The translations under genes and the position numbers were made by a program. Of a stretch of 42,902 nt of DNA, positions 211 to 40,205 are shown one piece after another. Numbering within the stretch: the stretch's first letter is position 1; every line of letters starts with the position of its first letter. The notes under the pieces are model-generated. The model ran no database searches and was not told the DNA's origin. It was given only the letters and a program-made list of their open reading frames with translations. The stretch covers positions 1 to 42,902 of IMG/VR virus record IMGVR_UViG_3300012952_000034. One strand, written 5' to 3'. Origin of the DNA: a virus. Its lineage: Duplodnaviria; Caudoviricetes.

Positions 211-238
211 GAGTGATCTCCGTTGGTTATGATTATAG

Positions 239-265
239 CTTATAACACAGGATGCGTTACGTCAA
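239..265 (-). promoter_or_regulatory. Regulon promoter with 17-bp operator-like palindrome
   Basis: Minus strand TTGACG-15-TATAAG containing TAACGCA-TCC-TGTGTTA (243-259). Confidence 0.7.
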
Positions 266-5040: not shown

Positions 5041-5391
5041 TCAGAATGGAAGGTCTTGTCCGTCTTCGATCCCGAAGGGGTTAGCATCGAGGAGCGGCTG
5101 TCCAAGAGCGTCGAAAACCTCTTCTCTGGTTGGCTCGCGCTTTTCGATCACAGCGTCGACAGCGACCCCTCTCGCGGCGTTGAACGCCTCTAAGATGACC
5201 ATGCTTCTCCCTGCATCGAGATCCTCGGCGGCTTCCATTACAAGCTGCATAGCGGCGCCAAATACGCTATTCCATTCGGGCTGTGACTCTGCAAAGTCAA
5301 CAGGGGAAAGCTCTGGGGGATCGAAATGAAAATTACCTTCTTCGATCTGTTGCTGCTGAAGTTCAAAAAACCATTGTCCTGTCTTGCTCAT
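5041..5391 (-). CDS. Acidic early-type protein ending in an SSB-like tail (DGQDLPF)
   Basis: 116-aa ORF, second gene of the cassette driven from 5606-5633. AGGAG RBS. Confidence 0.75.
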   Translation of the reverse strand: MSKTGQWFFELQQQQIEEGNFHFDPPELSPVDFAESQPEWNSVFGAAMQLVMEAAEDLDAGRSMVILEAFNAARGVAVDAVIEKREPTREEVFDALGQPLLDANPFGIEDGQDLPF

Positions 5392-5394
5392 TTT

Positions 5395-5577
5395 CTATCT
5401 CCTGTGGTTAACGATAGTTAGGGTGAGGGTGTCGCCTTCTTCCGCGATGGAGAAGGAAAGATCTGCGAGTTCGTTTTCGCTGATCATGAGGAACATCCGA
5501 GCCGCTTGGATTACGGTCTCTTCAGTGTGGTCGCCGAAGCGGTTATCGAGTTCGGCTTTTGTGAAGTTGATTGTCAT
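5395..5577 (-). CDS. Small hypothetical early-type protein
   Basis: 60 aa, directly downstream of a regulon promoter, GAGGT RBS. Confidence 0.75.
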   Translation of the reverse strand: MTINFTKAELDNRFGDHTEETVIQAARMFLMISENELADLSFSIAEEGDTLTLTIVNHRR

Positions 5578-5605
5578 TTGGTGGTTACCTCTGTCTTACA
5601 CTTAT

Positions 5606-5633
5606 AAGATAACACACCTTGCGTTACTGTCAA
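5606..5633 (-). promoter_or_regulatory. Regulon promoter with 17-bp operator-like palindrome
   Basis: TTGACA-16-TATCTT containing TAACGCA-AGG-TGTGTTA (5610-5626). A-tract upstream. Confidence 0.8.
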
Positions 5634-5641
5634 GGATTATT

Positions 5642-6154
5642 TTAAGTTTTTTTGTATTTTCTCCTTTTCGTTGCCTTGCTCTTCGTCCAGCACAGCTTGG
5701 AGCAGACATCTCGTCCGCTCTTGGAAACGAAGGTCGGCGCTCCACAGCTTGAGCAGAATACGGGATTGCTCCATTTTTTCACAGCATCGCTCTGGATTGC
5801 TCTAATCTTGGAGTCCATCCGCTTAATGATGCTCTGGATCTGTCCTGTCCTGTTTATCCGTCTGTGCTTCATGAATCCGCGAACGCTTCCGTCGTCGTAA
5901 CGCCTGACAGCGCAGATCCGAATTGCATCCGCTCCGACTGTCCGACACTCTCCAGATCTCAAGTCGATAGAGGTGTAGATCTTCACCCTGACAGGGATCG
6001 TCTTTTCGTAGCTCTTCAACTGGAACGAGTAAACCCTTTCCATGGTCCCTCTTTCCCTGTCTTCTTTTATGGTCCAGCTTGAGAAGTCAAAATAATTCTC
6101 GATGGCGTTAGCCAGAGCAAGTCGGCTCTCCTGACATTTTGGATCGTATATCAT
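5642..6154 (-). CDS. Hypothetical protein with C-terminal Cys4 zinc ribbon
   Basis: 170 aa; IYTSID...R..GADAIRI core; CSSC...CSKLC at the C-terminus. ATGA overlap with the upstream gene. Confidence 0.75.
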   Translation of the reverse strand: MIYDPKCQESRLALANAIENYFDFSSWTIKEDRERGTMERVYSFQLKSYEKTIPVRVKIYTSIDLRSGECRTVGADAIRICAVRRYDDGSVRGFMKHRRINRTGQIQSIIKRMDSKIRAIQSDAVKKWSNPVFCSSCGAPTFVSKSGRDVCSKLCWTKSKATKRRKYKKT

Positions 6155-6351
6155 GGGGCTCTCCTTTCATTCCATGCGAGACACTGGACACCGAATGCGA
6201 TCTCCTTCATCTTCTCGGCAAGGTCTGCATCTGACAGAAATCCAACCCATCTTTTTAGGTTCTCGGTGAGGTGCGGAATATAGCTTTCCATACCTTCCTC
6301 AACAAGGTCGGCGATTATCATCTCCAGAAGCTCGGTGTTTTCTTGGCTCAT
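6151..6351 (-). CDS. Small hypothetical early-type protein
   Basis: 66 aa, AACGGAGA RBS, regulon promoter upstream. Confidence 0.75.
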   Translation of the reverse strand: MSQENTELLEMIIADLVEEGMESYIPHLTENLKRWVGFLSDADLAEKMKEIAFGVQCLAWNERRAP

Positions 6352-6377: not shown

Positions 6378-6406
6378 ATCATAACACAAGGTGCGATAGA
6401 GTGCAA
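6378..6406 (-). promoter_or_regulatory. Regulon promoter with 17-bp operator-like palindrome
   Basis: TTGCAC-17-TATGAT containing TATCGCA-CCT-TGTGTTA (6382-6398). Confidence 0.75.
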
Positions 6407-6485: not shown

Positions 6486-6980
6486 ATGAGTCAAAAAGCC
6501 ATAATGCCAGACATGCCAGAAGGAGCAGAAGAAGCCATCGACGGAATGAGAACCCTTATGGAGTCTCTCGTCCCGCCTGACGACGTTACGATAACCGACA
6601 TTTTTGGGACAGAGTACACCGTCACGACGAAGATTAGCGCTCGCTCTCAGATCAAGATTATCCGCGAGCTTGAGTCCTGCGCCGACATCGATCTTGGTGT
6701 ATCCAGCATTCAAGAGCTAAGCCTCCCAGCGCTCGTCTTTAAGGTTGCAGCTAACGAGCAGCTTCTGGAGATGGTTGGTCGGTGCATGAGCATAGCTTTC
6801 CCTCTGGTGGTCTCAAACGCCGAGGCGACAGCCAAGGAGAAGGGGGTCGCCTATGAAGAGCCCAGCGCTATCGATCTCTTTTCGGTCGAAGAGGTGGTCA
6901 GTGCTATCGTCCCTTTGTTTTTACGGGTGGCGAAGAAGACGGGGTCCGTTCTGACGATTCTAAGCGCCCTAACAAGCTAA
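6486..6980 (+). CDS. Tail assembly chaperone (gpG-like)
   Basis: Lies between the tail tube and tape measure genes. AGGAG RBS before ATG 6486. Contains an in-frame slippery heptamer. Confidence 0.75.
   Translation: MSQKAIMPDMPEGAEEAIDGMRTLMESLVPPDDVTITDIFGTEYTVTTKISARSQIKIIRELESCADIDLGVSSIQELSLPALVFKVAANEQLLEMVGRCMSIAFPLVVSNAEATAKEKGVAYEEPSAIDLFSVEEVVSAIVPLFLRVAKKTGSVLTILSALTS
6911..6923 (+). other. Putative -1 programmed ribosomal frameshift site
   Basis: C-CCT-TTG (XXXYYYZ in frame), immediately followed by G-TTT-TTA. The -1 frame is open from here into ORF 7001-7303. Confidence 0.7.
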
Positions 6981-19175: not shown

Positions 19176-19607
19176 TCAGTCCCATGGATCTTTAGGGATG
19201 TTCAACAGGTGGAGATGAGCGCGATACTTATGAAGCTCATCAGAGATCATGTCCGCAACGGCTCCCCAGAAGATGAGACCAGTCGGATACTGCTTATTCG
19301 TTCCAGAGTTCTCAACATCCATCCGCTCGACCTGCTTCCTGATGATCTCGCGAAAGATAGCCCGATCATGATCGTTGAGATCATTGGCATGGTCGACATA
19401 AACCTTCCGAGCATCTTCGCGGCTCATCTGTGTCGGGGTCTCGATGTCATACTCTGGATGAGGTCCGCGATTAGTATGGACGGGGCATGTCTCCCATGTA
19501 TCGAAGGCGCTGAGCATCCATCCGCTTCCTCGGCATCGACAGAGCGAGGGGTCTGGGTTGGCGAGATACTTCATTTCGGCGATTGCGTTTCGGTACATGT
19601 CGGACAT
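19176..19607 (-). CDS. Hypothetical protein with a Cys/His motif
   Basis: AAGGAG RBS before ATG 19607; CRCRGSGWMLSAFDTWETCPVH...HPE. Confidence 0.75.
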   Translation of the reverse strand: MSDMYRNAIAEMKYLANPDPSLCRCRGSGWMLSAFDTWETCPVHTNRGPHPEYDIETPTQMSREDARKVYVDHANDLNDHDRAIFREIIRKQVERMDVENSGTNKQYPTGLIFWGAVADMISDELHKYRAHLHLLNIPKDPWD

Positions 19608-19629
19608 TGTTTTCTCCTTGGTTTTACCC

Positions 19630-19652
19630 AAAAAGCCCGCCGAGGGCGGGCT
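19630..19652 (-). terminator. Intrinsic terminator
   Basis: Minus strand AGCCCGCC-CTC-GGCGGGCT-TTTT. Confidence 0.75.
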
Positions 19653-19671
19653 GGTTGTGTTTCCAGTGCGA

Positions 19672-19845
19672 TTAATAATCGCCTCGACGAAGAGCCTTCT
19701 TAGCAGCCTGACGACGCTTGGTCTCGATGGCTTTATTCTGGCGAGCCCTCCGAGCCTTCGCTCCCTTGCCTTTATTATGATTAAGACCCCAGCTTTTCTT
19801 GTCTGCTCCGCTCTTCTTTCCGTAATCGTTTGAACCGTTCTGCAT
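19672..19845 (-). CDS. 57-aa Lys/Arg-rich peptide (below the ORF-track cutoff)
   Basis: MQNGSNDYGKKSGADKKSWGLNHNKGKGAKARRARQNKAIETKRRQAAKKALRRGDY. It has its own regulon promoter, an AACGGAGA RBS and a terminator. Confidence 0.8.
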   Translation of the reverse strand: MQNGSNDYGKKSGADKKSWGLNHNKGKGAKARRARQNKAIETKRRQAAKKALRRGDY

Positions 19846-19878
19846 TTTGTTTCTCCGTTGTTGTTTGCTTACAATTAC

Positions 19879-19906
19879 ATTCTATCACATTCTGCGTTAC
19901 TGTCAA
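19879..19906 (-). promoter_or_regulatory. Regulon promoter with 17-bp operator-like palindrome
   Basis: TTGACA-16-TAGAAT containing TAACGCA-GAA-TGTGATA (19883-19899). Confidence 0.8.
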
Positions 19907-19916
19907 CAAGAAAGAT

Positions 19917-19941
19917 AAAAAAAAAGCCCCGATGAGGGGCT
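19917..19941 (-). terminator. Intrinsic terminator
   Basis: Minus strand AGCCCC-TCATC-GGGGCT followed by a long T run. Confidence 0.8.
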
Positions 19942-19956
19942 GTTCGCTGTGCTGCT

Positions 19957-20220
19957 CTATGGGCGCTCAATAGGATATAAAGCCCAAGCTTCCGACGCGC
20001 CATCTTCCTCCTCTACCTCTGCAAGGCATCGAGCTATGATCTGAATGACAAGACCGTAATAAGATCCGTCTCCTTCTGAAGCGATTTCATAAAGCCCTTC
20101 GATCTCTTTCTTTACAGAGGCGAAAAGGTGAGTGTGATTATAAAACTGATTCACTTTAACCTGCTTCGCTGCTCTGCGATAAGCTGCGACCGCTTCTTCT
20201 CTGGTTACGTTTGGGGTCAT
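19957..20220 (-). CDS. Small hypothetical early-type protein
   Basis: Start placed at ATG 20220 after the AACGGAGA RBS (87 aa). Confidence 0.75.
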   Translation of the reverse strand: MTPNVTREEAVAAYRRAAKQVKVNQFYNHTHLFASVKKEIEGLYEIASEGDGSYYGLVIQIIARCLAEVEEEDGASEAWALYPIERP

Positions 20221-20250
20221 CTTTTCTCCGTTGGTGTTGGTTACATTCTT

Positions 20251-20278
20251 ATGATACCACACAGTGCGTTATTGTCAA
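20251..20278 (-). promoter_or_regulatory. Regulon promoter with 17-bp operator-like palindrome
   Basis: TTGACA-16-TATCAT containing TAACGCA-CTG-TGTGGTA (20255-20271). Confidence 0.8.
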
Positions 20279-25698: not shown

Positions 25699-27447
25699 AT
25701 GTCGCGATCAAATTGGAAGGGAACTGCTGGATGGGGAGCCATCGCGGACCCGACTCGCCTTATGTCGGGGAATGTCCTTGTTGCTACAGCGGGAACAACG
25801 GCAACGAACGAAGACTATCTTCTCCAGATTCCAAGCACAGGAGCGACGTTTTCCATCTCAAATTATGCCGTTCGGATCAATTACGCTTTCCCGACCTATG
25901 TCGACAGCACCACAGCCAGCAATATGTCGGTAGGTCTGATCGCGAGATCTGGAGCTTTCGGAACGGATGCAGCAGTCGCAGGGCTAACAGCCCAGACAGG
26001 ATATATCGGAAGGCTTAACAGGGCGACAGGAAAGGCGGAGATCTACAAGCGGAACCAAGTCACAGGAACAGGAGGGGTCGACACTCTCCTTCATTCGGCG
26101 ATTATTCCGACATCGTCCTTCGACTTCGGAGTTCTTCACACCATGGAGTTCAAGTGTGTCGGAGATGCGAGCAACGGGGTAACGCTTGAGCTTTCTGTCG
26201 ATGACACCGTAGCTGTAAGCATCGGAGACACGACGGCAAGTCCTCACACAAGCGGATTCTCTGGAATACAGATACTGAGCGGGACGACATACGCGGACAA
26301 TTTCACCGTCCTCCAGTACACCGCAAGCGGCGCCGCGTCGATTCCCTCTTATTCTGGCTGGGTTCCGACTGATACATATACGACAGCAGATCTCGCGCTA
26401 TGGCTCAAGAGCGATACAGGCATCAGCACAAGGACAGACGGACCAGATCTTCGGGTGTCGCAATGGCAGGATTCAAGCGGAAACAGCAACACGCTTAACC
26501 AAGCATCTTCAAGCGCTGTCCAGCCTACTGTGATCGCAAGCGGAAACTCAGACGGATCGACAGCGATAAACTGCGTCCGCTTTAACTATGCAGACAATCA
26601 GTTCATAAACGCCTCTCCATCGAGCAGCTTGAACATCCACAACACAGGGGACGGGATAACAGCCTTCTTCCTTGTTCGGGCTTTCCAGACGGCAGTGGGG
26701 CAGGCTCAGAATGCAGGCGACGACACCTATGTCGCTCCCTTGTTGAACTATGGGCGCTCTTATGAGCTTTTCTTGAAAGACGATCCTACCCCCGGAACTT
26801 TTCAGCAGAATATGCAGTTCACAAACGACTCAAATTCTCCAAGCTCAAACAATTCGATCTACACCGTCGGACAGTGGGAGATCGTCGGATATGTTAACGG
26901 AGCATCCACGACCTCGGACCAGAGGGGATTCTTTAAGAACGGAACCCAATGGTCGACGACTACTGGCGGATACATCCCATCCAACAAAGACACAGGAAGG
27001 GTCGACTCCGTCGCGACTGTGGTCAGCGGGGGCTCTGGGTATGTGGCATCCTCTGGAGTAGCTACATCAGGCGGAACAGGGACGGGGTTGACAGTAGACA
27101 CCACGACCAACATCGGAGGGAACATAACAGGGGCGACCGTTAACGCTGCGGGTCAAGGGTACACTAACGGAGACACGATAACGATAACGGGAGGCTCGGG
27201 AAGTGCGACCATAACGATCAATGTTAGCCTTCCCTTGGTAGACCTTAGAATAGGGCGCAGAAACGCCGCTCAGTCTCATCTGGCAGGATATGAATACGGG
27301 GCTTTCGACCTTATCGAAGTCGTCCTTCTGGACAAGGCTGCGAGCATAGCAAACAGGCAGAAAATAGAGGGTTATTTCGCTTGGAAGTACGGTCTAACGG
27401 ATGCCCTTCCTGCTTCTCATCCTTACAAAAATTCAGCGCCAACATGA
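25699..27447 (+). CDS. Virion fibre/adhesin with lectin (LamG/ConA-like) domains
   Basis: LALWLKSD...VSQWQDSSGNSN...IEGYFAWKYGL...HPYK, with an inserted SGGSGY...GGTGTGLTV...GQGYTNGDTITI module. GAGG RBS before ATG 25699. Confidence 0.75.
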   Translation: MSRSNWKGTAGWGAIADPTRLMSGNVLVATAGTTATNEDYLLQIPSTGATFSISNYAVRINYAFPTYVDSTTASNMSVGLIARSGAFGTDAAVAGLTAQTGYIGRLNRATGKAEIYKRNQVTGTGGVDTLLHSAIIPTSSFDFGVLHTMEFKCVGDASNGVTLELSVDDTVAVSIGDTTASPHTSGFSGIQILSGTTYADNFTVLQYTASGAASIPSYSGWVPTDTYTTADLALWLKSDTGISTRTDGPDLRVSQWQDSSGNSNTLNQASSSAVQPTVIASGNSDGSTAINCVRFNYADNQFINASPSSSLNIHNTGDGITAFFLVRAFQTAVGQAQNAGDDTYVAPLLNYGRSYELFLKDDPTPGTFQQNMQFTNDSNSPSSNNSIYTVGQWEIVGYVNGASTTSDQRGFFKNGTQWSTTTGGYIPSNKDTGRVDSVATVVSGGSGYVASSGVATSGGTGTGLTVDTTTNIGGNITGATVNAAGQGYTNGDTITITGGSGSATITINVSLPLVDLRIGRRNAAQSHLAGYEYGAFDLIEVVLLDKAASIANRQKIEGYFAWKYGLTDALPASHPYKNSAPT

Positions 27448-27461
27448 GCGGGAGAACAAAA

Positions 27462-27878
27462 ATGGAATGGATCTTATTGGCTGTCGGTATTGGTGTCGGC
27501 GCGGGAGCAGGGACAGGGATCACTCTGTGGTTTAAGAAGAAAGAGCCAGTCGAAGAAGTGGACAACACAGCGACCGAGCAGCAGGAGGTTATCAAGCAGC
27601 TAACAAACCTCGATCTGATCATGCCGATATGCAGTCCTGAGCATCTGTCGAAAGAAGGGAACGACGATTCTCTCTGCCGTTATCTGGCTTGTCTGCAATT
27701 CAGCAGAGGCATAGATTCCCAGACCAGCGGAAGCGAGTGCGAGCAGATCTCCAACATCATGAACAAGAAAAGCATTCTTTCATACTGCAAAGACGAAGCA
27801 AAAAAGGCAGACGTAACCGCTGACGAGTACGAGAAAGATATCAAGGAATGCGTCGAGTTTTTTGACCGAAGGCTATAG
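27462..27878 (+). CDS. Membrane-anchored Cys-rich protein (possible lysis accessory)
   Basis: N-terminal hydrophobic segment followed by six Cys. GGAG RBS before ATG 27462. Confidence 0.6.
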   Translation: MEWILLAVGIGVGAGAGTGITLWFKKKEPVEEVDNTATEQQEVIKQLTNLDLIMPICSPEHLSKEGNDDSLCRYLACLQFSRGIDSQTSGSECEQISNIMNKKSILSYCKDEAKKADVTADEYEKDIKECVEFFDRRL

Positions 27879-27898
27879 GGAGAACGGAAAATCCTCCT

Positions 27899-27962
27899 GT
27901 ATTATACCCACAAGGGATAATATACCCGTAGGGTATATATATCCCGTAGTGGGATATAATAC
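27899..27962. repeat. 64-bp imperfect palindrome, copy 2 (inverted relative to copy 1)
   Basis: GTATTATACCCACAAGGGATAATATACCC-GTA-GGGTATATATATCCCGTAGTGGGATATAATAC. Confidence 0.9.
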
Positions 27963-27971
27963 TAAGGGGCT

Positions 27972-28250
27972 TTATCCTTTCCCCTCTTCGCTTTCGCTGC
28001 GCTGCGCTGCAATTTGAGCCACCCTGACATATTTATCCAGTGCAGCCTGTCCGAGGATATATCCGCTCTGGACGAAACCGCTGACGACTATCATCGCGAG
28101 AAGGGCTGTCAGTGTTCCTCCTTCGCAGTTGAGATATATCATCCAACCCATGAGGAGCTTCCATCCAGCGTCGGCGATCAGGTACGCGAGGAACTTCTTC
28201 GATGAGAGAGGAAGCTTCTCTTTTGAGATTCGTTCTGCGAGGCGGGACAT
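27972..28250 (-). CDS. Second holin-like membrane protein
   Basis: LSSKKFLAYL...GYILGQAALD resembles LKSRKFWFAL...AYIFGQGYVD of 20350-20562. GGAG RBS. Confidence 0.6.
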   Translation of the reverse strand: MSRLAERISKEKLPLSSKKFLAYLIADAGWKLLMGWMIYLNCEGGTLTALLAMIVVSGFVQSGYILGQAALDKYVRVAQIAAQRSESEEGKG

Positions 28251-28268
28251 AATGGCTCCATGGAAAAA

Positions 28269-28310
28269 TGCGTTATTTTTGTTGCGTTAGATATTGCATT
28301 GTGCTATACT
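28269..28310 (+). promoter_or_regulatory. Promoter of the HTH-regulator operon, with operator half-sites
   Basis: TTGCGT-17-TATACT (28282-28310). TGCGTTA half-sites at 28269 and 28283, and TGTGCTA over the -10. Leader begins GTGTAAGACAAC. Confidence 0.65.
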
Positions 28311-28348
28311 CGGAGTGTAAGACAACCAACACAAGGAGACTAACCACA

Positions 28349-28486
28349 ATGAGAAAGACAGACAAAATCGCAAATTGGACCGAGGATAACGTGGACCTCT
28401 GGGGCGGCTGGATTATCGGCGCCGCTCTTGGAGCATACTTATTCTGGGTCTCACAATGGAACAGCTATCTTTATTCCATGCTATAG
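28349..28486 (+). CDS. 45-aa membrane peptide
   Basis: AAGGAG RBS before ATG 28349; single hydrophobic segment LWGGWIIGAALGAYLFWV. Confidence 0.65.
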   Translation: MRKTDKIANWTEDNVDLWGGWIIGAALGAYLFWVSQWNSYLYSML

Positions 28487-28496
28487 GAGGCAATAA

Positions 28497-28844
28497 ATGG
28501 GTATCGTAGACAATAGCAACAGAGGGAAACAAACCCGATTCAAGAAGTACAGCAGACATGGGATGAGACTTCCCAGACAGAAGATCTTTTCCACCGTCAA
28601 AGCGCTGTACATGGAAGAGACAGGAAACACGAACAAGGAGGTCGCCGAGGTGCTGGAGATCACTCCTCAGTCATGTTCGACGCTCGCGAGTGGTTCAGAC
28701 AGGAGACAGCCTCCTTTCTGTATCATTCTTCGGCTTCTCGATGAGATGGAGATGGGTCTTCTGCTCACTGGAGACGGGGTCGCCATCGTACCAGCAGGAG
28801 AAGGGGACGACCCAGATCCAGAAAACGAGGATCAGGATGAATAG
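28497..28844 (+). CDS. Cro/CI (XRE)-like helix-turn-helix regulator
   Basis: TNKEVAEVLEITPQSCSTLASG...PPFCIILRLLDEM. AGGAGG RBS. Confidence 0.75.
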   Translation: MGIVDNSNRGKQTRFKKYSRHGMRLPRQKIFSTVKALYMEETGNTNKEVAEVLEITPQSCSTLASGSDRRQPPFCIILRLLDEMEMGLLLTGDGVAIVPAGEGDDPDPENEDQDE

Positions 28845-29778
28845 CTCTAAGGCTAATAAACTTGACTGGATAATGACTGCGTCTCTCGGCGCTCTCTGGA
28901 GCTTGAGCGATCAGCAGAAAGAGAACGTCCGAGATTTCGGGGTCTGGGTGATTGACAACCATCTGACCCACGACGGAGAGATCGACCTTCCTCCGAGCTA
29001 CGGGGGAGGGGACGACTTTCTCTGGAGGTTATACAACGTCGGTTATTTTGATCCTGCTCTTGATCATGACATAGACGACGAGAGCTTCAACGCATCGTTT
29101 CTCTATGATTTCATCGAATGGCAGAAGGACTCCGCCCATCCTGTGAAGCTGACTCCCAAGCGTCTCAAGATGATCTATGGCTTCGTCATGGAAGAGTATA
29201 GGAGGATCCTCCTTTCGCAGCGACAGATCTCTCTCTTGTCTGCGGCTGTTCAGATGTGGGGGCTCATCCCTTCCCATCTGTCTGAGGCAATCCTCAAAAT
29301 AGAGGCTCAAAGGATGGAGGGCGCCCGTAAGCATGGCGAAACCTGCCCAGTGTGCAACCAGTTAGCCAAAGAGTACAAAGTGCGTTTCTCGGTGAATATG
29401 GCTGTCTTTCTGAGGAGCCTCGTCATTAACTATCTCCAAAACAGAGCCGAGGGAGGAGACGGCTGGATCCATTACAAGGAATGCACGTTCTCCAGCAGGA
29501 ATTATCCGTATGTCGCATATTGGGAGCTTGCCACGACCAGAGCAGACCCAGCAGGGCGAAAGCGTACTTCTGGAGAATGGAAGCCAACCCAGAAAGGGAT
29601 CGATTTCATTTTCAACAGGACAAAGGTTCCTCTCTATTGCTACACTTACAACGGCGCCGCGACAGGCTTCGACAACGCTACAGAGATCAACATCTCGGAA
29701 GCATTTGGAGGGGAAGAGTTCAACCTCTCGGAACTAATGGGGCTCGTACCCGATCAACAGGAGAAAGACCATGGATAA
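28837..29778 (+). CDS. Hypothetical protein with CxxC and a possible winged-helix C-terminal domain
   Basis: GETCPVCNQ...YWEL...GEWKPTQKGIDF. Start placed at ATG 28837. Confidence 0.65.
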   Translation: MNSSKANKLDWIMTASLGALWSLSDQQKENVRDFGVWVIDNHLTHDGEIDLPPSYGGGDDFLWRLYNVGYFDPALDHDIDDESFNASFLYDFIEWQKDSAHPVKLTPKRLKMIYGFVMEEYRRILLSQRQISLLSAAVQMWGLIPSHLSEAILKIEAQRMEGARKHGETCPVCNQLAKEYKVRFSVNMAVFLRSLVINYLQNRAEGGDGWIHYKECTFSSRNYPYVAYWELATTRADPAGRKRTSGEWKPTQKGIDFIFNRTKVPLYCYTYNGAATGFDNATEINISEAFGGEEFNLSELMGLVPDQQEKDHG

Positions 29779-30028
29779 CGTAATCCCCATCGAGACACCG
29801 AATGTCTACATGATCCGCGCTTATACGGACGAGAACAGCTATTTCGCGTTTGGCTTGTACGTCAACGCCGAGGACGCTAACAAAGCGGCTGATGAGCTTA
29901 TGGAGAGCGGGAGATATCACAAGACAGAGATCTCCAACATCTCGACCGAGGACTGGGGGGACACGACAAAGACAGACATGGTCGACGCTGGCTTCGCTGT
30001 TGACAGTTCAACACTGAAGAGGGTATAG
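29771..30028 (+). CDS. Hypothetical protein
   Basis: 85 aa, GGAG RBS, overlaps the upstream stop. Confidence 0.65.
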   Translation: MDNVIPIETPNVYMIRAYTDENSYFAFGLYVNAEDANKAADELMESGRYHKTEISNISTEDWGDTTKTDMVDAGFAVDSSTLKRV

Positions 30029-30053
30029 GATCTCCGACTAACAGGGAGAAGAT

Positions 30054-30641
30054 ATGAGCGACATTCCAAAGCTGCTGCAACGATCAAAGGATGCGGGTCA
30101 TGCAGTATTCACAAAGGGCGCCTATAACCTCAACATAATCGGCATTCGGTCAAAGAATAGAACCGCTGGAAGCTTCGACGACCAGATCCATCTGGTGTTC
30201 AAAGACGAATTCGGACAGTGGATCGACATCGGATTCCAATGCACCACAGACGCGGGGCTCTACTGGATGGAGGGGCGCGGGAACGGCAATAAGAAAGGAT
30301 GCGCCATCCTCAAGGCTGGACAGTATCGCGGGGTATACAAGATCGACAAGCACCGAGGAAAATACGACGCGCTCTGTCAGCGCCTCGGAAAGGTCTCGGT
30401 CTATAGGGATGACAATTACGACAAGATCATGGACATGGACGAAAGCAAGGTCCAATCTGGGTTTTTCGGCATTAACATCCATCGAGCCTCTGCGGCTAAT
30501 GAGACCGTCTCTGTCGAACGCTATTCGGCAGGGTGCCAAGTCATGAACAACCCAGAAGAATACGCGATCTTCATGTCTATCGTCAAGAAGGGAGCGGATC
30601 GATGGGGAAACCATTTCAGCTATACGCTACTTGAGGACTGA
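30054..30641 (+). CDS. Putative endolysin/peptidoglycan peptidase of L,D-transpeptidase (YkuD)-like type
   Basis: YNLNIIGIR...TTDAG...VYRD...GINIHRA-x10-SAGCQV His/Cys catalytic pattern. Confidence 0.7.
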   Translation: MSDIPKLLQRSKDAGHAVFTKGAYNLNIIGIRSKNRTAGSFDDQIHLVFKDEFGQWIDIGFQCTTDAGLYWMEGRGNGNKKGCAILKAGQYRGVYKIDKHRGKYDALCQRLGKVSVYRDDNYDKIMDMDESKVQSGFFGINIHRASAANETVSVERYSAGCQVMNNPEEYAIFMSIVKKGADRWGNHFSYTLLED

Positions 30642-30967
30642 TGAAAGCAAAAGTTTCCGCTGTGAAGCGGCTGTATCGGCTCGGTGTTCCGATACCTGAT
30701 CTTCTGGCTATGTTTGCAAGGCAGGGAAGACCCACGACGGCAGATGTCGGAGAATGGGTCATAGCTCACGCTCAGGATTTTCCTGTCGGCTTGTTTGCAG
30801 AGATGAAAGGGGCGAAAGCTGCTATCTTCATCGATCAAAATCACTATATGGAACTGGACTTCGGCGCCTTCTCTGTTCTGAATGCGGAAGGTACAGAGGA
30901 CGACCTGACGCTTGACGCAGGGGTCGACATGGATTCCATACTTGACAAATTGAACAAAAGGGACTAA
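30641..30967 (+). CDS. Hypothetical protein
   Basis: 108 aa, TGATG coupling with the upstream gene. Confidence 0.65.
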   Translation: MKAKVSAVKRLYRLGVPIPDLLAMFARQGRPTTADVGEWVIAHAQDFPVGLFAEMKGAKAAIFIDQNHYMELDFGAFSVLNAEGTEDDLTLDAGVDMDSILDKLNKRD

Positions 30968-31116
30968 CATCCCAATTAAGCCCTTGGGTCCGACTGCATT
31001 TCTCGCGCTGTAAATCGCTCACCTATGAAAAGGTCGAAACGTATCGCTGAGATTGTTGATCTCCGTTGTCTTACACTGGGGGAGGGGAGTGGTTACTCCT
31101 CCCCCTTCTATTTTTT
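30968..31116 (+). ncRNA. Candidate small RNA 1 (anti-leader seed plus terminator)
   Basis: 150-nt intergenic segment with several short hairpins. TCTCCGTTGTCTTACAC (31060-31076) is antisense to the regulon leader/RBS and is followed by a terminator hairpin. Confidence 0.45.
31078..31116 (+). terminator. Intrinsic terminator
   Basis: GGGGGAGG(GG)AGT-GGTT-ACTCCTCCCCC-TTCTATTTTTT. Confidence 0.75.
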
Positions 31117-31137
31117 CTGAAATATTTCTTTTTTTCC

Positions 31138-31165
31138 TTGACGGTAACTTACTATGTGTTATCTT
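31138..31165 (+). promoter_or_regulatory. Regulon promoter with 17-bp operator-like palindrome
   Basis: TTGACG-16-TATCTT containing TAACTTA-CTA-TGTGTTA (31145-31161). Confidence 0.8.
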
Positions 31166-31196
31166 ATATGTGTAAGACAAATCAACGGAGAAAAAA

Positions 31197-31508
31197 ATGA
31201 ATACCAACGAAAGACATGACATAGAAATTCCAAGAGGACAAAAAGAGCTTAATGAGCTTCTCATCGAGACCACCCTCGACAACGTCGACAGCCTTATGTC
31301 CTGCTTCAGCGTTGATAGAAAACATGCGGAATACAACGTCTGGCACTCAGAGCAGAACCTTATTCAAGCTCTTAACGAATCTCTTTTGGATGATGGCGCG
31401 GCTTACGACTCTTTCAAGGCTCAGTTTGATGCTGACAAAAAAGTAGAAGCTGAAGTTATCGAGATCATTCGGCTTCTGGCTAAATGGAAGCTCATCAATC
31501 AAGACTAA
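31197..31508 (+). CDS. Hypothetical early-type protein
   Basis: 103 aa, AACGGAGA RBS. Confidence 0.75.
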   Translation: MNTNERHDIEIPRGQKELNELLIETTLDNVDSLMSCFSVDRKHAEYNVWHSEQNLIQALNESLLDDGAAYDSFKAQFDADKKVEAEVIEIIRLLAKWKLINQD

Positions 31509-31542
31509 ACAGTTTAACCACACCAACCAACGGAGAGAGAAA

Positions 31543-32067
31543 ATGGGCTACTGGATCAAAGGAACAGTCACAGGAGAGGCGACCGCGACGCTTGAGCTTA
31601 ATGTTAGCTATAGCCATCTGGTCGCAGCAGATGAGGCATTCAACGGAGCAGACGCAGACGATGTCGATCCCTATGATGCCATGAACTATCTGGACGACGA
31701 AGGTCTTCTCGCTGCTCAGTTCGGCGGCGCCTATGAGGAGATCATGGAAGAGCTTCGCGGCAATTGCTGCGGATGCGTCGACGTTTCAGAGCGCGGATCT
31801 GGAATGGTTGAGGTAGAGGTCAGCGTCTGCGTGGAGATCGAGAGGACGTTTGACTTTGAGACTCGATTCCACGAAAAGATCACTTGCTGGGAATATGCCT
31901 TCCAGAGAGAGTTCGATGTGAGGATCAGCGTGAAGGAATGCAGGAAAGAGCTTAATGATCTCGGTCTCGGAAGAGGTGTCTCATGCGACAAATGCTCATC
32001 CTTCATCGACAGCGCCGAATTCGACTGCGAGGGGGAAGATGGTCAGACGTATTCTCTCGGCTTTTAA
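31543..32067 (+). CDS. Acidic, Cys-rich hypothetical protein
   Basis: 174 aa, AACGGAGA RBS; CCGC and CDKC motifs. Confidence 0.75.
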   Translation: MGYWIKGTVTGEATATLELNVSYSHLVAADEAFNGADADDVDPYDAMNYLDDEGLLAAQFGGAYEEIMEELRGNCCGCVDVSERGSGMVEVEVSVCVEIERTFDFETRFHEKITCWEYAFQREFDVRISVKECRKELNDLGLGRGVSCDKCSSFIDSAEFDCEGEDGQTYSLGF

Positions 32068-32075
32068 AAAAGTTC

Positions 32076-32103
32076 TTGACACTATCGCATATTGTGATAT
32101 AAG
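32076..32103 (+). promoter_or_regulatory. Regulon promoter with 17-bp operator-like palindrome
   Basis: TTGACA-16-TATAAG containing TATCGCA-TAT-TGTGATA (32083-32099). Confidence 0.8.
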
Positions 32104-32121
32104 TATAGAAACGGAGTAACC

Positions 32122-32568
32122 ATGACCAGACAGAAGACCAAAACCCCAAAGCATGAGCCTGTCGTTCAAACGGTATGGATCAAAGATCGGATCGATCTTG
32201 AGTGCCACACCGCGACACCGACATGGTTTGTCGAGTGTGCTCCTGAGATGTATAAGAGCATGGTCCTAAACAAAGACATGGGGCTCCGAGCCGCTCGCAG
32301 GGTCATAGCTGAGCATTCAGAGCGACTCGTCGAGCTTATCCGCGACGGGTACACCATGACATGCCAGTGCAAGCAGGGAAAGCACTTCAAGCCACACAGA
32401 AACGTCCTGAGCGTTATCCGATGCAAGACCTGCAAGGACTACAGCGAGCAGATCGCTCCTGAGTTCTCTAAGACCTTCCCTAACGGTCAGACGCTCAGGG
32501 TCGCCGCTACCTTCAAGACCTACCGAAAGGTTTTCGTTCTGGAGAGCGGCTACTACGAAAAGATTTAA
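32122..32568 (+). CDS. Hypothetical protein with a possible zinc-binding motif
   Basis: 148 aa; CQC...H...CKTC. AACGGAG RBS. Confidence 0.7.
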   Translation: MTRQKTKTPKHEPVVQTVWIKDRIDLECHTATPTWFVECAPEMYKSMVLNKDMGLRAARRVIAEHSERLVELIRDGYTMTCQCKQGKHFKPHRNVLSVIRCKTCKDYSEQIAPEFSKTFPNGQTLRVAATFKTYRKVFVLESGYYEKI

Positions 32569-32592
32569 GCGGACAATTCCTGTCCGCCCTTT
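32569..32592 (+). terminator. Probable weak intrinsic terminator
   Basis: GCGGACA-ATTCC-TGTCCGC-CCTTT. Confidence 0.55.
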
Positions 32593-32631
32593 CTGCGGCG
32601 GATGGGTTATTCTGCATACAGGAGATCAACT

Positions 32632-33894
32632 ATGGAAAACACCAAAGCGCTCAAAACGAAGATCGGAAGATACGAGAAGAGCGGAAGACTTGAAAGCCTC
32701 GGCGTATTCATGCCGATAACCAACACCGAGAAGGCGGATCTCATGTGTCCCCGTCTCTACTCGATGAGCTACGTCGAAGAGCTACAGTCTCCCCTAAAAG
32801 GAGAGGCTCTGCTTTATGGAATTGCTTACCATGAGATTCTTGAGCATGTCCTCAAGACCATAATGGTCGACGATGAAGCCATCCCAAGCCTGTCAATACT
32901 CCAGATCGCAGTGGATGAGATGGCTCCCGCTATTCTTTATCGGCTATGTCAGGAGCATGAGACGGATCCCCAGATTGTCGACGACATGTCCGACAGGATC
33001 TCTCGTTCGTTTGAGGGATGGTTTAACAACTGGGAGAGCCAGATTCATCCGTTCTATCGGTGCGTAGGTGTTGAGCTTGTGGTAGCGATGCCCATCACAG
33101 GAGACAGGGGCGAACCTTTCGACATGCCGATCTATATCGTCAACGATGGAGACGGCTACAGACCAGCGAGGATCGCTGAGGAAGGAGCTTATCTCCAGTC
33201 TGTACCCTTCTACCGCATCGGCAAGATAGACGCGCTTCTTGAGTGCAGGGAGACGGGCGCTCTGTACATCCTTGACCACAAGACAGCAGGGTCGATCTCC
33301 AGCTATGGGAGAAAGTTCGTCTATGATACCCAGCTTGTCGGCTATGCGGCTTGCATGAGATGGGAGATCGAGCATGGAGCCTATCAGCAATGGAAAGGGC
33401 GCAAGATCAAAGGAGTGATCTGGGACTTGATTAACAGCAAGCCTCCAGCGGTCCCGAAGCCTCTCAAGAGCGGGAAGCTCAGTAAGGCTATGACCAAGGC
33501 GCCGCCCAGCTATATCTTTCGGCGTGCTGTGGAGGCTCATGGTTTCGACATGGAAGACTATGAAGATCATATCGCTGAATTGCGCGACAAGGTGGACGGC
33601 AATCATCACAAGTGTCTCACCGAGAGCATTTATGGGGGCGACATGGACCGACTTGAGCGGGAGGATTATGGTCATGCAACCATGATCCATTCTCTCAGGA
33701 AGGCTCTTATCATGAGCGATGGGAGAAGCATCGACAGCGTAGCTCCTCGGCTTCCAGTCTGCTCCAAGTTCGGAACCTGCAAGCTTGGAACTGTATGCAC
33801 AGCGGGAGAGAACCCGAAGGACTCCATCAGTCCGAGAGCCGTTCGCGTCCGCTGGGAAGAGGAGAAAGAAAAAGAAGAAAAAGCGCTCTTCTAA
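32632..33894 (+). CDS. PD-(D/E)XK exonuclease, Cas4/RecB/AddB-like
   Basis: MCPR...GIAYHEILE...VEL...GKIDALL...ILDHKT...QLVGY, plus three C-terminal Cys (Fe-S staple pattern). AGGAG RBS before ATG 32632. Confidence 0.85.
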   Translation: MENTKALKTKIGRYEKSGRLESLGVFMPITNTEKADLMCPRLYSMSYVEELQSPLKGEALLYGIAYHEILEHVLKTIMVDDEAIPSLSILQIAVDEMAPAILYRLCQEHETDPQIVDDMSDRISRSFEGWFNNWESQIHPFYRCVGVELVVAMPITGDRGEPFDMPIYIVNDGDGYRPARIAEEGAYLQSVPFYRIGKIDALLECRETGALYILDHKTAGSISSYGRKFVYDTQLVGYAACMRWEIEHGAYQQWKGRKIKGVIWDLINSKPPAVPKPLKSGKLSKAMTKAPPSYIFRRAVEAHGFDMEDYEDHIAELRDKVDGNHHKCLTESIYGGDMDRLEREDYGHATMIHSLRKALIMSDGRSIDSVAPRLPVCSKFGTCKLGTVCTAGENPKDSISPRAVRVRWEEEKEKEEKALF

Positions 33895-33896
33895 GC

Positions 33897-33924
33897 TTGA
33901 CAGTATTTCATAATGAGTTATATT
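33897..33924 (+). promoter_or_regulatory. Regulon promoter with 17-bp operator-like palindrome
   Basis: TTGACA-16-TATATT containing TATTTCA-TAA-TGAGTTA (33904-33920). Confidence 0.75.
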
Positions 33925-35403: not shown

Positions 35404-35998
35404 GGGAAGCAGGAAGATCCTGACCATCGGGATCGATCCAGCATCAGAGGGCGCAGCTACCATCCTGCTAAACGGGGAGGTAGTCTGCGCTCTCGCTTGG
35501 AGAAAGAGGACCAGACAGAAGAAACGGGTCTATGAAATCACCGAAGCTCGGCAGGGATACGATCCCTTTTCGTTCATTGTCAAAAGCGGAGGAGAGATCG
35601 GCGCGTCTATCTTCAACCTACCAGAGGTCCAGAGAGCGGTCGAGGATGGCTATGAGATAGACCTTGTCGTCGAGGACACCTATGTAGGGCGGAACATGAG
35701 GACGGCGCTCATAGTCGCGAGATTTGGCGGTCTTGTCGCGGGTACTGTTGAAGCTGGGATCGGAAAGCCTGCTAATTGGATCCGAGCAGCGTCATGGAGG
35801 AACAGCCTGCTCAAGATCAGCCATTTTGCGAACAGGGAAAAAGCAAAAAAATCAAGTTTATCCTTGATCCCTAACTTATTATGTGGTATGAGTGTATTGA
35901 TAGACAAGCTCGGAGCGATTGACCATCTAACCGACTCGGCAGGGGTAGCACTCTGGCACTATCGAACTAACCACACAGACGGAGAACCAAAGACATGA
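35351..35998 (+). CDS. RuvC-like Holliday junction resolvase (start uncertain)
   Basis: TIGIDPA...LVVED...AASWR...DHLTDSAGVAL. The nearest in-frame ATG is 35351; the true start may be nearer 35420. Confidence 0.75.
   Translation: MNREDGTIQQAPKTSHSKGSRKILTIGIDPASEGAATILLNGEVVCALAWRKRTRQKKRVYEITEARQGYDPFSFIVKSGGEIGASIFNLPEVQRAVEDGYEIDLVVEDTYVGRNMRTALIVARFGGLVAGTVEAGIGKPANWIRAASWRNSLLKISHFANREKAKKSSLSLIPNLLCGMSVLIDKLGAIDHLTDSAGVALWHYRTNHTDGEPKT
35864..35892 (+). promoter_or_regulatory. Internal regulon promoter/operator upstream of the replication genes
   Basis: TTGATC-17-TATGAG containing TAACTTA-TTA-TGTGGTA (35872-35888), in an AT-rich patch inside the resolvase gene. Confidence 0.6.
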
Positions 35999-38381: not shown

Positions 38382-38410
38382 TTGCGGTCTAACGCATTAT
38401 GCGTAATAAT
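38382..38410 (+). promoter_or_regulatory. Regulon promoter with 17-bp operator-like palindrome
   Basis: TTGCGG-17-AATAAT containing TAACGCA-TTA-TGCGTAA (38390-38406). Confidence 0.7.
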
Positions 38411-39183: not shown

Positions 39184-39211
39184 TCGACAGTAACTCACTA
39201 TGAGTTATTAT
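39184..39211 (+). promoter_or_regulatory. Regulon promoter with a perfect 17-bp palindrome
   Basis: TCGACA-16-TATTAT containing TAACTCA-CTA-TGAGTTA (39191-39207). Confidence 0.8.
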
Positions 39212-39239
39212 ATAGATGTAACCACAACGGAGAGAGAAA

Positions 39240-40181: not shown

Positions 40182-40205
40182 CGCTATCTTACTATGAGTT
40201 ATAAT
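40178..40205 (+). promoter_or_regulatory. Regulon promoter with 17-bp operator-like palindrome
   Basis: TTGACG-16-TATAAT containing TATCTTA-CTA-TGAGTTA (40185-40201). Confidence 0.8.

Follow-up and report, generated by a model that had tools for sequence, protein, structure and literature searches.

The operon that encodes a helix-turn-helix (HTH) protein in this virus ends in a non-coding stretch that reads as the complement of leaders shared by genes elsewhere in the same genome, which raises the question of whether the stretch yields an RNA that masks many ribosome binding sites (RBSs) at once, or whether it is a relic of one of the gene cassettes that it mirrors. The window analysed here is the whole 42.9-kb virus contig (42,902 nt; record G000), which is estimated to be 61% complete and has genes for a tape measure protein, a primase/helicase, a Sak4-like protein, an exonuclease and a small terminase. 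The sequencing runs that match it best are marine DNA runs, with no RNA run among those listed, and a search for a prophage in genome contigs found none.

On the plus strand, the stretch is flanked by a promoter-like site of the sigma-70 type and an intrinsic terminator. The promoter-like site (30942-30970) has a -35 element TTGACA (30942-30947), a 17-nt spacer and a -10 element TAACAT (30965-30970), agrees with the consensus at 10 of 12 positions and overlaps the 3' end of the ORF at 30641-30967. It should be noted that such a match is weak by itself, with four sites of this kind per 4.5 kb against 4.1 in shuffled sequence. With the +1 placed at the seventh base past the -10 element, the predicted small RNA of about 138 nt would span 30977-31116 and carry two seeds. 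Seed 1, the tract TGATCTCCGTTGTCTTACACT (31057-31077), lies directly 5' of the terminator stem and fuses an anti-Shine-Dalgarno (anti-SD) part, TGATCTCCGTTG, which mirrors CAACGGAGA, to an anti-5'-end part, TCTTACACT, which mirrors the GTAAGAC leaders. Seed 2, GTGGTTAC (31089-31096), is the complement of the GTAACCAC leader type and has seven of its eight bases inside the terminator loop. The terminator itself (31078-31116) consists of a G+C-rich 10-bp stem (31078-31087/31096-31105), an 8-nt loop and a T tail. In the folded RNA of the window, the mean unpaired probability is 0.82 for the loop seed and about half (0.51-0.59) for seed 1. A non-coding stretch flanked by its own promoter and an intrinsic terminator is the arrangement found in RBS-blocking trans-acting small RNAs generally; the original prediction had overlooked both the promoter of the unit and the second seed in the terminator loop. 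Small hairpins, which it had also named, add little as evidence: the fold is unremarkable against shuffles (z -0.70 for 30965-31120 and -1.03 for 30977-31114), and the CCCAA arm precedes the predicted +1. The only ATG frame inside the unit, a plus-strand frame of 31 codons at 31025, was rejected as a gene, as it lacks an SD, reads through the terminator and has a one-base insertion in its tail in X2 and X3. The minus strand was rightly described as holding no intact cassette, with no SD plus ATG and no promoter found there.

The unit had been proposed to be a 3'-derived RNA of the HTH operon. Its position at the operon end stands, and an obligate 3' origin does not, given that it has a promoter-like site of its own about 100-140 nt before the terminator. 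A related possibility is that the tract is simply the 3' untranslated end of the operon mRNA and pairs as part of a long transcript, with no separate RNA being made. This would be compatible with the search for a strong terminator between the 28349 promoter and 31078, which found none (a single 5-bp stem at 28701), and with how common promoter matches of this grade are. However, promoter-like sites occur at an equal distance from the terminator not only in the window but also, as judged by eye, in most relatives, irrespective of the upstream gene. We therefore regard the long-transcript explanation as very unlikely. Its regulatory outcome would be the same as that of a separate RNA.

The pairing potential of the unit was measured against a set of 53 leaders of the window, based on codon-model gene calls from which two doubtful genes were dropped, in which two starts were moved and to which five genes were added by hand. 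The six complementarity lengths reported originally were reproduced exactly, with perfect complements of 12 nt to the leader of the gene at 210, 13 nt to that of 28349, 11 nt to those of 31197 and 5577, and 10 nt to those of 19845 and 39240. Among 80,944 windows of 45 nt from both strands, with windows antisense on a called leader left out, 31056-31100 on the plus strand ranks first, matching 10 of the 53 leaders at 9 nt or more, and the runner-up matches six. Against 300 dinucleotide shuffles, 10 of 50 leaders were matched compared with 0.9 +/- 1.2 (p=0.003). The matches are confined to one class of genes: at thresholds of 8 nt for seed 1 and 7 nt for the loop seed, and with leader classes assigned by hand from position and PHROG hits, either seed matches 17 of 34 non-structural leaders and none of 19 late-block leaders (Fisher p=1.1e-4). 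Seed 1 matches 14 of these 34 non-structural leaders and the loop seed 11, and all nine genes with a cassette promoter detected by script are matched. When the cost of opening the structures is paid, co-folding gains -17.4 kcal/mol for the nine promoter-first genes compared with -9.9 kcal/mol for the late block (p=3e-4); the remaining 25 non-structural leaders average -9.1 kcal/mol. Nearest-neighbour duplex energy alone does not separate non-structural from late leaders (p=0.13).

Where the matches lie on the leaders bears on what the pairing would do. The matches at 28349, 5577 and 31197, which are among the best, reach over the predicted 5' end, and 14-22 nt separate them from the ATG. Moreover, because the seventh base past the -10 element begins GTAAG or GTAACC in most of the cassette promoters inspected, the seeds are complementary to the bases with which both transcript types are predicted to begin. 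These features would suit an RNA that pairs with the leaders but protects or activates them, either by shielding the 5' ends from decay through pairing of the first bases or by buffering expression. We consider this unlikely, since most matches include the SD and come to within 1-9 nt of the ATG, both in the window (11 of 16) and in the relatives, and since coverage of the SD blocks loading of the 30S subunit in the case of c4 and RsaE, as described in the passages that deal with these RNAs (PMC12197685; PMC6158497). In the window and in a high-GC clade described below, 2-3 nt of the match lie upstream of the predicted +1, which may reflect either an earlier transcription start or an origin by cassette inversion.

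The leaders concerned are dispersed over both strands. The best match of all (13 nt) is to the leader of the first gene of the HTH operon (28314-28348, plus strand). The target cassette before ORF 31197 (31138-31196, plus strand) has a promoter with a 17-bp palindrome (31145-31161) and a leader of the form GTAAGAC...CAACGGAGA. Palindromes are also present in the cassettes at 39191-39239 (plus strand), whose leader matches both seeds (GTAACCAC then ACAACGGAGA); at 5578-5626 (minus strand), which likewise matches both (GTAAGACA and GTAACCAC); at 19846-19899 (minus strand), where the ACAACGGAGA leader gives the strongest predicted duplex; at 20221-20271 (minus strand), with 9 nt matched to seed 1 and 7 nt to seed 2; and at 211-259 (minus strand), with a 12-nt match over the SD. 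Small early-type cassettes on the minus strand, each with a palindrome and a tagged leader, are inserted within the late block at 5041-6351, 19176-20220 and 1-210. Another side observation concerns two inverted intergenic copies of 67 nt (27896-27962 and 352-418; 84% identical), AT-rich, self-complementary and with short direct repeats, which could be an origin or a packaging-related site.

The palindrome, TAAC-CA-N3-TG-GTTA, lies between the -35 and -10 elements and occurs at 13 sites compared with 0.78 expected. Twelve of them are in promoter spacers (243-259, 5610-5626, 6382-6398, 19883-19899, 20255-20271, 31145-31161, 32083-32099, 33904-33920, 35872-35888, 38390-38406, 39191-39207 and 40185-40201), each being one 17-bp palindrome within the spacer rather than a pair of 17-bp arms. 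It is likely the operator of the XRE-like HTH protein that is encoded at 28497-28844 (plus strand) by the second gene of the upstream operon. In the high-GC relatives, a related palindrome can also be seen in the spacer. The promoter of the unit lacks it in the window (4 of 12 positions). That this promoter always escapes the palindrome was rejected, as a partial copy (7-8 of 12) is present in G002, L130, L138, L147 and L161.

Relatives of the window had to be found through a protein. The exact 17-nt tract gave no match in viral contigs, the primase as a single query found no relative there, and an endolysin-like query returned 80 loci, none with more than three shared window proteins. A search with a primase alignment did find relatives, yielding 38 viral and 75 metagenome loci, of which 20 virus records were taken whole. 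In total 43 records were analysed, 39 of them distinct: L119, the window's own record, was excluded, and G005 and L141 (as G020), L120 (as G001) and G003 (as L133) were counted once. For 12 metagenome loci the leader sets are small, as they come from locus DNA rather than whole contigs. Annotated phages have only distant primases, about 22-25% identical among the matches listed.

Units were looked for in two ways. An unbiased scan scored each intrinsic terminator, together with the 70 nt upstream of it, against that phage's own leaders. Non-coding terminator units up to 4.5 kb upstream of the exonuclease gene were picked by position, which gave 17 distinct relatives; where a hairpin could be read on both strands, the strand with a promoter-like site and a T tail was chosen, and 5' ends were placed by eye. 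Seven more units (G010, G011, G012, G013, G014, G015 and L165) came from a leader match or from likeness to such a unit, so that these 7 of 24 are not independent tests. After eight records with too little DNA upstream of the exonuclease gene or no exonuclease hit were set aside, 31 distinct relatives remained, and 24 of them have a syntenic unit; the primases are 41-53% identical to that of the window. The unit was not found in the seven others with enough upstream DNA, namely G008 (complete), G017, G019, L133/G003, L159, L190 and L191. Among the 18 units with an HTH hit, the window included, 16 are co-oriented with the HTH gene and lie 0.9-6.8 kb downstream of it, also with the block inverted, as in the sister records G020 and L137; in G004 and L161 the unit is unlinked to the HTH gene.

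Several local features of these loci were noted in passing. The genes located between the unit and the endolysin-like gene vary, and those of L082 (3130-6020), L094 (4730-5740) and L113 (4850-5400) are, judged by eye, similar to DNA methyltransferases. In L133 (5481-6159; also G003), a very AT-rich intergenic stretch of 680 nt precedes the exonuclease gene and no unit was detected in it. A second promoter-terminator non-coding unit with a palindromic stretch lies downstream of the primase gene in G020 (C1), G005 and L141 (12171-12278). The terminator loop at L088:2147-2237 (minus strand), and also that in G020, G005 and L141, has AGTGGTTAC as does the loop in the window, with few own leaders matched. 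Finally, G009 (C1) has two candidate units, near 6564 and near 45095; the one that is not syntenic carries repeated pyrimidine tracts and matches 11 leaders at 9 nt or more.

No homologue of the unit by sequence turned up when the relatives' loci were searched with blastn. What most of the relatives share is the relation between each unit and its own leaders. In the 17 relatives picked by position, the window being left out, units match on average 12.4% of their own leaders compared with 4.0% after permutation (p<1e-4), and in a subset of 11 records with about one per branch the values are 11.9% and 3.1%. Taken singly, 8 of the 17 beat their own shuffles at 9 nt (G002, G004, G016, L123, L130, L161, L168 and L171), and nine do not (G001, G006, G007, G009, G020, L083, L137, L138 and L147), several of which have only 7-34 called leaders. 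In 16 of 18 units the leaders are matched better in antisense than in the same sense; at 9 nt, G006 and G007 depart from this. The window groups with six records (L083, G002, L123, L130, L138 and L168) in the primase tree with support of 98/95, and all seven have a TCCGTTG core. The motif states that are mirrored by a phage's own unit are CAACGGAG in the window, G002, L123, L130 and L168; CACCAACA in G004; ATAAAACCA in G016; GTAAGAAGGA in L171 (12 of 31 leaders); GACAACCAC in L161; GCAGGAG/GTCAGCAG in G010-G015; GAGGACAC in G013; and GAAGAAGGAG in L165. Most of the 25 genes matched in G002 are short; replication genes are among those matched. Among near strains of the window, one substitution in the 138-nt unit compared with 69 differences in 3657 nt is uninformative (Poisson p=0.27). 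The seed thus covaries with its targets, as expected of an RBS-blocking trans-acting small RNA. The unit is real and non-random, and is conserved in function rather than in sequence. The central claim of the original prediction, a multi-target antisense RNA masking RBSs at the end of the HTH operon, is supported at the level of sequence by the 24 relatives and by the tracking of each phage's own leader motif.

The match to phage leaders could be a by-product of the SD that these leaders and host mRNAs both have, with the RNA acting as a general anti-SD decoy directed mainly at host mRNAs in a host shut-off. Most units do have a CUCC core, and the syntenic unit of G009, which matches its own leaders weakly, resembles the 3' end of 16S rRNA. 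Such a decoy is nevertheless decidedly improbable, as the flanks outside the SD are phage-specific, are mirrored and change with each phage, and as the GGAG-bearing leaders of the late block are unmatched at 8 nt or more (0 of 19).

With respect to structure, fold z values range from -2.9 to -7.0 in five of five relatives tested, and these values are inflated since the units were picked for a terminator hairpin. RNAalifold gave no consensus fold for five units of the CAACGGAG clade, the stems being out of register; each of them folds singly with the core in or beside a loop, and seeds are enclosed by stems in several relatives. In the high-GC clade (five sequences), a 23-nt invariant stretch with anti-SD and anti-5'-end parts is enclosed by stems. 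Changes on both sides of these stems occur in 11 of 59 pairs, compared with 1-4 pairs in slid controls and with none as high in 500 shuffles, a count that comes from five related sequences and hence carries no probability. Because the T tail is weak in this clade and an ATG follows closely 3' of the unit, the high-GC unit may double as a leader.

These data also bear on whether the motif could be a DNA site for a phage protein, its inverted copy serving as an auxiliary operator or decoy beside the 31138 promoter. The extension of the match upstream of the predicted +1 would fit such a site. Counts of G-U wobble at duplex ends in 25 units (88 wobble against 86.8 expected, 75 non-wobble against 68.5) are neutral, and lend no support to recognition as RNA over recognition as DNA. 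On the other hand, the motif is placed relative to start codons, even at internal genes for which no promoter was detected (31543, 38777 and 32632); the stems around the invariant tract covary; and the tract is antisense to the promoter-terminator direction of its own unit even in inverted blocks. Moreover, the role of a DNA operator is already filled by another motif, because the palindrome sits in 12 promoter spacers and not at the unit. We accordingly hold a protein-binding DNA site to be highly improbable.

The caveat attached originally, that the unit is a decayed and inverted early-gene cassette without function, can be judged from the same family of genomes. Cassettes are mobile in this region: between 31120 and 31511, run X4 departs from the window's sequence right past the terminator and matches it again from 31511 on, the two parts being on separate contigs. 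An origin by inversion would also fit the extension of the match by 2-3 nt. In a separate observation on the neighbouring gene, X2, X3 and X5 have an in-frame deletion of 51 nt (31357-31407) in ORF 31197. Yet X4 retains the unit while the adjacent cassette differs, and units occur at the same place in 24 relatives with differing motifs, following each phage's own. On the opposite strand, 22 of 25 units lack an SD plus ATG and the other three have frames of 1-13 codons. The family data largely refute functionless decay, and we see hardly any chance that it is correct.

We therefore return to an antisense RNA, and consider that the unit probably gives rise to a trans-acting RNA that represses translation of early genes. 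The RNA of about 138 nt, starting near 30977, would pair in trans with the shared leaders of non-structural genes and block their translation. If the cassette promoters start their transcripts at GUAAG or GUAACC, as we infer, seed 1 would pair with the SD and with the start of one transcript type, and the start of the other would be captured by the loop seed in a loop-first contact. Accumulation of the RNA would then shut down translation of early and replication genes and spare the late block. The XRE-like protein of the same operon would likely act on the palindrome of the same genes, adding a protein layer to the RNA layer, and the 13-nt pairing with the 28349 leader would provide negative feedback on the HTH operon. 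Read-through from the 28349 promoter could be a second source of the RNA.

The HTH protein hits PHROG 2328 at E=0.0024, gave no Pfam or PDB sequence hit, and has a predicted model (pLDDT 72.9) whose best Foldseek rows are ClgR, HipB, SinR and C proteins (E 0.017-0.1, prob ~1.0; no row at E 0.001). Since activators are found beside repressors among its nearest folds, the protein is at most a putative repressor. A search for an antirepressor among 54 ORFs scanned in PHROGs found none in this 61% complete record. Because no tyrosine integrase (PF00589) was found in any of 12 records, we prefer a temporal switch to a lysogenic one, with a timer of the early-to-late transition or a limiter of dose being more probable than a determinant of lysogenic immunity. 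A resolvase domain (PF00239) is present in 4 of the 12 records (G011, G012, G013 and G015) and absent from the window; its carriers all belong to the branch that holds the high-GC clade.

Short structured RNAs that control phage genes by leader pairing include the CI RNA of satellite phage P4, which acts on the leader of its own operon and causes transcription termination. The predicted RNA is similar in being a short phage RNA that would pair with leaders, and differs in that these leaders are dispersed. The c4 antisense RNA of P1 and P7 is described, in the passages on it, as a trans-acting RNA that pairs with phage mRNA near the RBS and blocks translation by means of short complementary stretches presumed to be located in loops; it has a single target, the ant mRNA, and sets the immunity of a temperate phage (PMC12197685). 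The unit resembles c4 in being phage-encoded and in directing short complementary stretches at the RBS of phage mRNAs, as predicted from sequence, and is unlike it in matching about 17 dispersed leaders. It does not belong to the c4 family, in that Rfam gave no match at gathering score in the loci of six relatives, and for 27000-33000 of the window nothing at E<=5 but a microRNA hit attributable to chance. RsaE of Staphylococcus aureus recognizes the G-rich SD-like motifs of several mRNAs with two C-rich motifs, and the pairing down-regulates these mRNAs (PMC6158497). The predicted C-rich seeds against SD-like motifs of multiple mRNAs are alike; however, RsaE is chromosomal and metabolic, and its targets share just a G-rich core rather than an extended, co-evolving leader specific to a phage. 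A literature search, with subscription journals mostly outside its reach, found no published phage RNA directed against the leaders of multiple targets.

The closest parallel in layout is found in the cluster K mycobacteriophages. Their SAS/ESAS repeats are asymmetric, contain an SD and lie at the starts of non-structural genes; about half of the SAS have an upstream inverted repeat, and four genomes have a single copy in the opposite orientation away from gene starts (Pope et al. 2011, PMC3203893). In the passages on SAS, the authors left open whether RNA or protein binds, and no RNA is described there (PMC3203893). The window has the same layout, with an SD-containing repeat in one orientation that is limited to non-structural genes, plus a lone inverted copy. 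As far as those passages go, the analogy is one of layout and not of sequence: the 13-bp SAS consensus has two matches at up to two mismatches in the window, compared with 0.93 expected. In contrast to cluster K, the window represents another phage group, and its inverted copy lies within a promoter-terminator unit and covaries with the leaders. By analogy, the unit may account for the one inverted copy of SAS in cluster K.

A wider reading is that the early regulon of this phage family runs on a co-evolving barcode, in which a phage-specific tag marks the transcript start and the SD, one small RNA reads both and silences the whole class, and the lone inverted SAS of cluster K is the same device; we think that this could equally well prove right or wrong. 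On this reading, lock and key would have changed in concert on at least eight occasions, in genomes with G+C contents of 33-72%, and the RNA-leader pair could set which related phages interfere with one another. If true, the phage would pass from early to late expression by a compact switch acting on translation, in which one leader tag shared by the early genes lets the whole class be silenced. A class-wide RNA of this sort would differ from the c4-type phage antisense RNAs, which act on one operon. The naturally varied RNA-leader pairs are ready cognate and non-cognate controls, and could possibly serve as orthogonal multi-gene repressors in synthetic biology. The finding would also give a testable function to start-associated repeats that have been unexplained since 2011.
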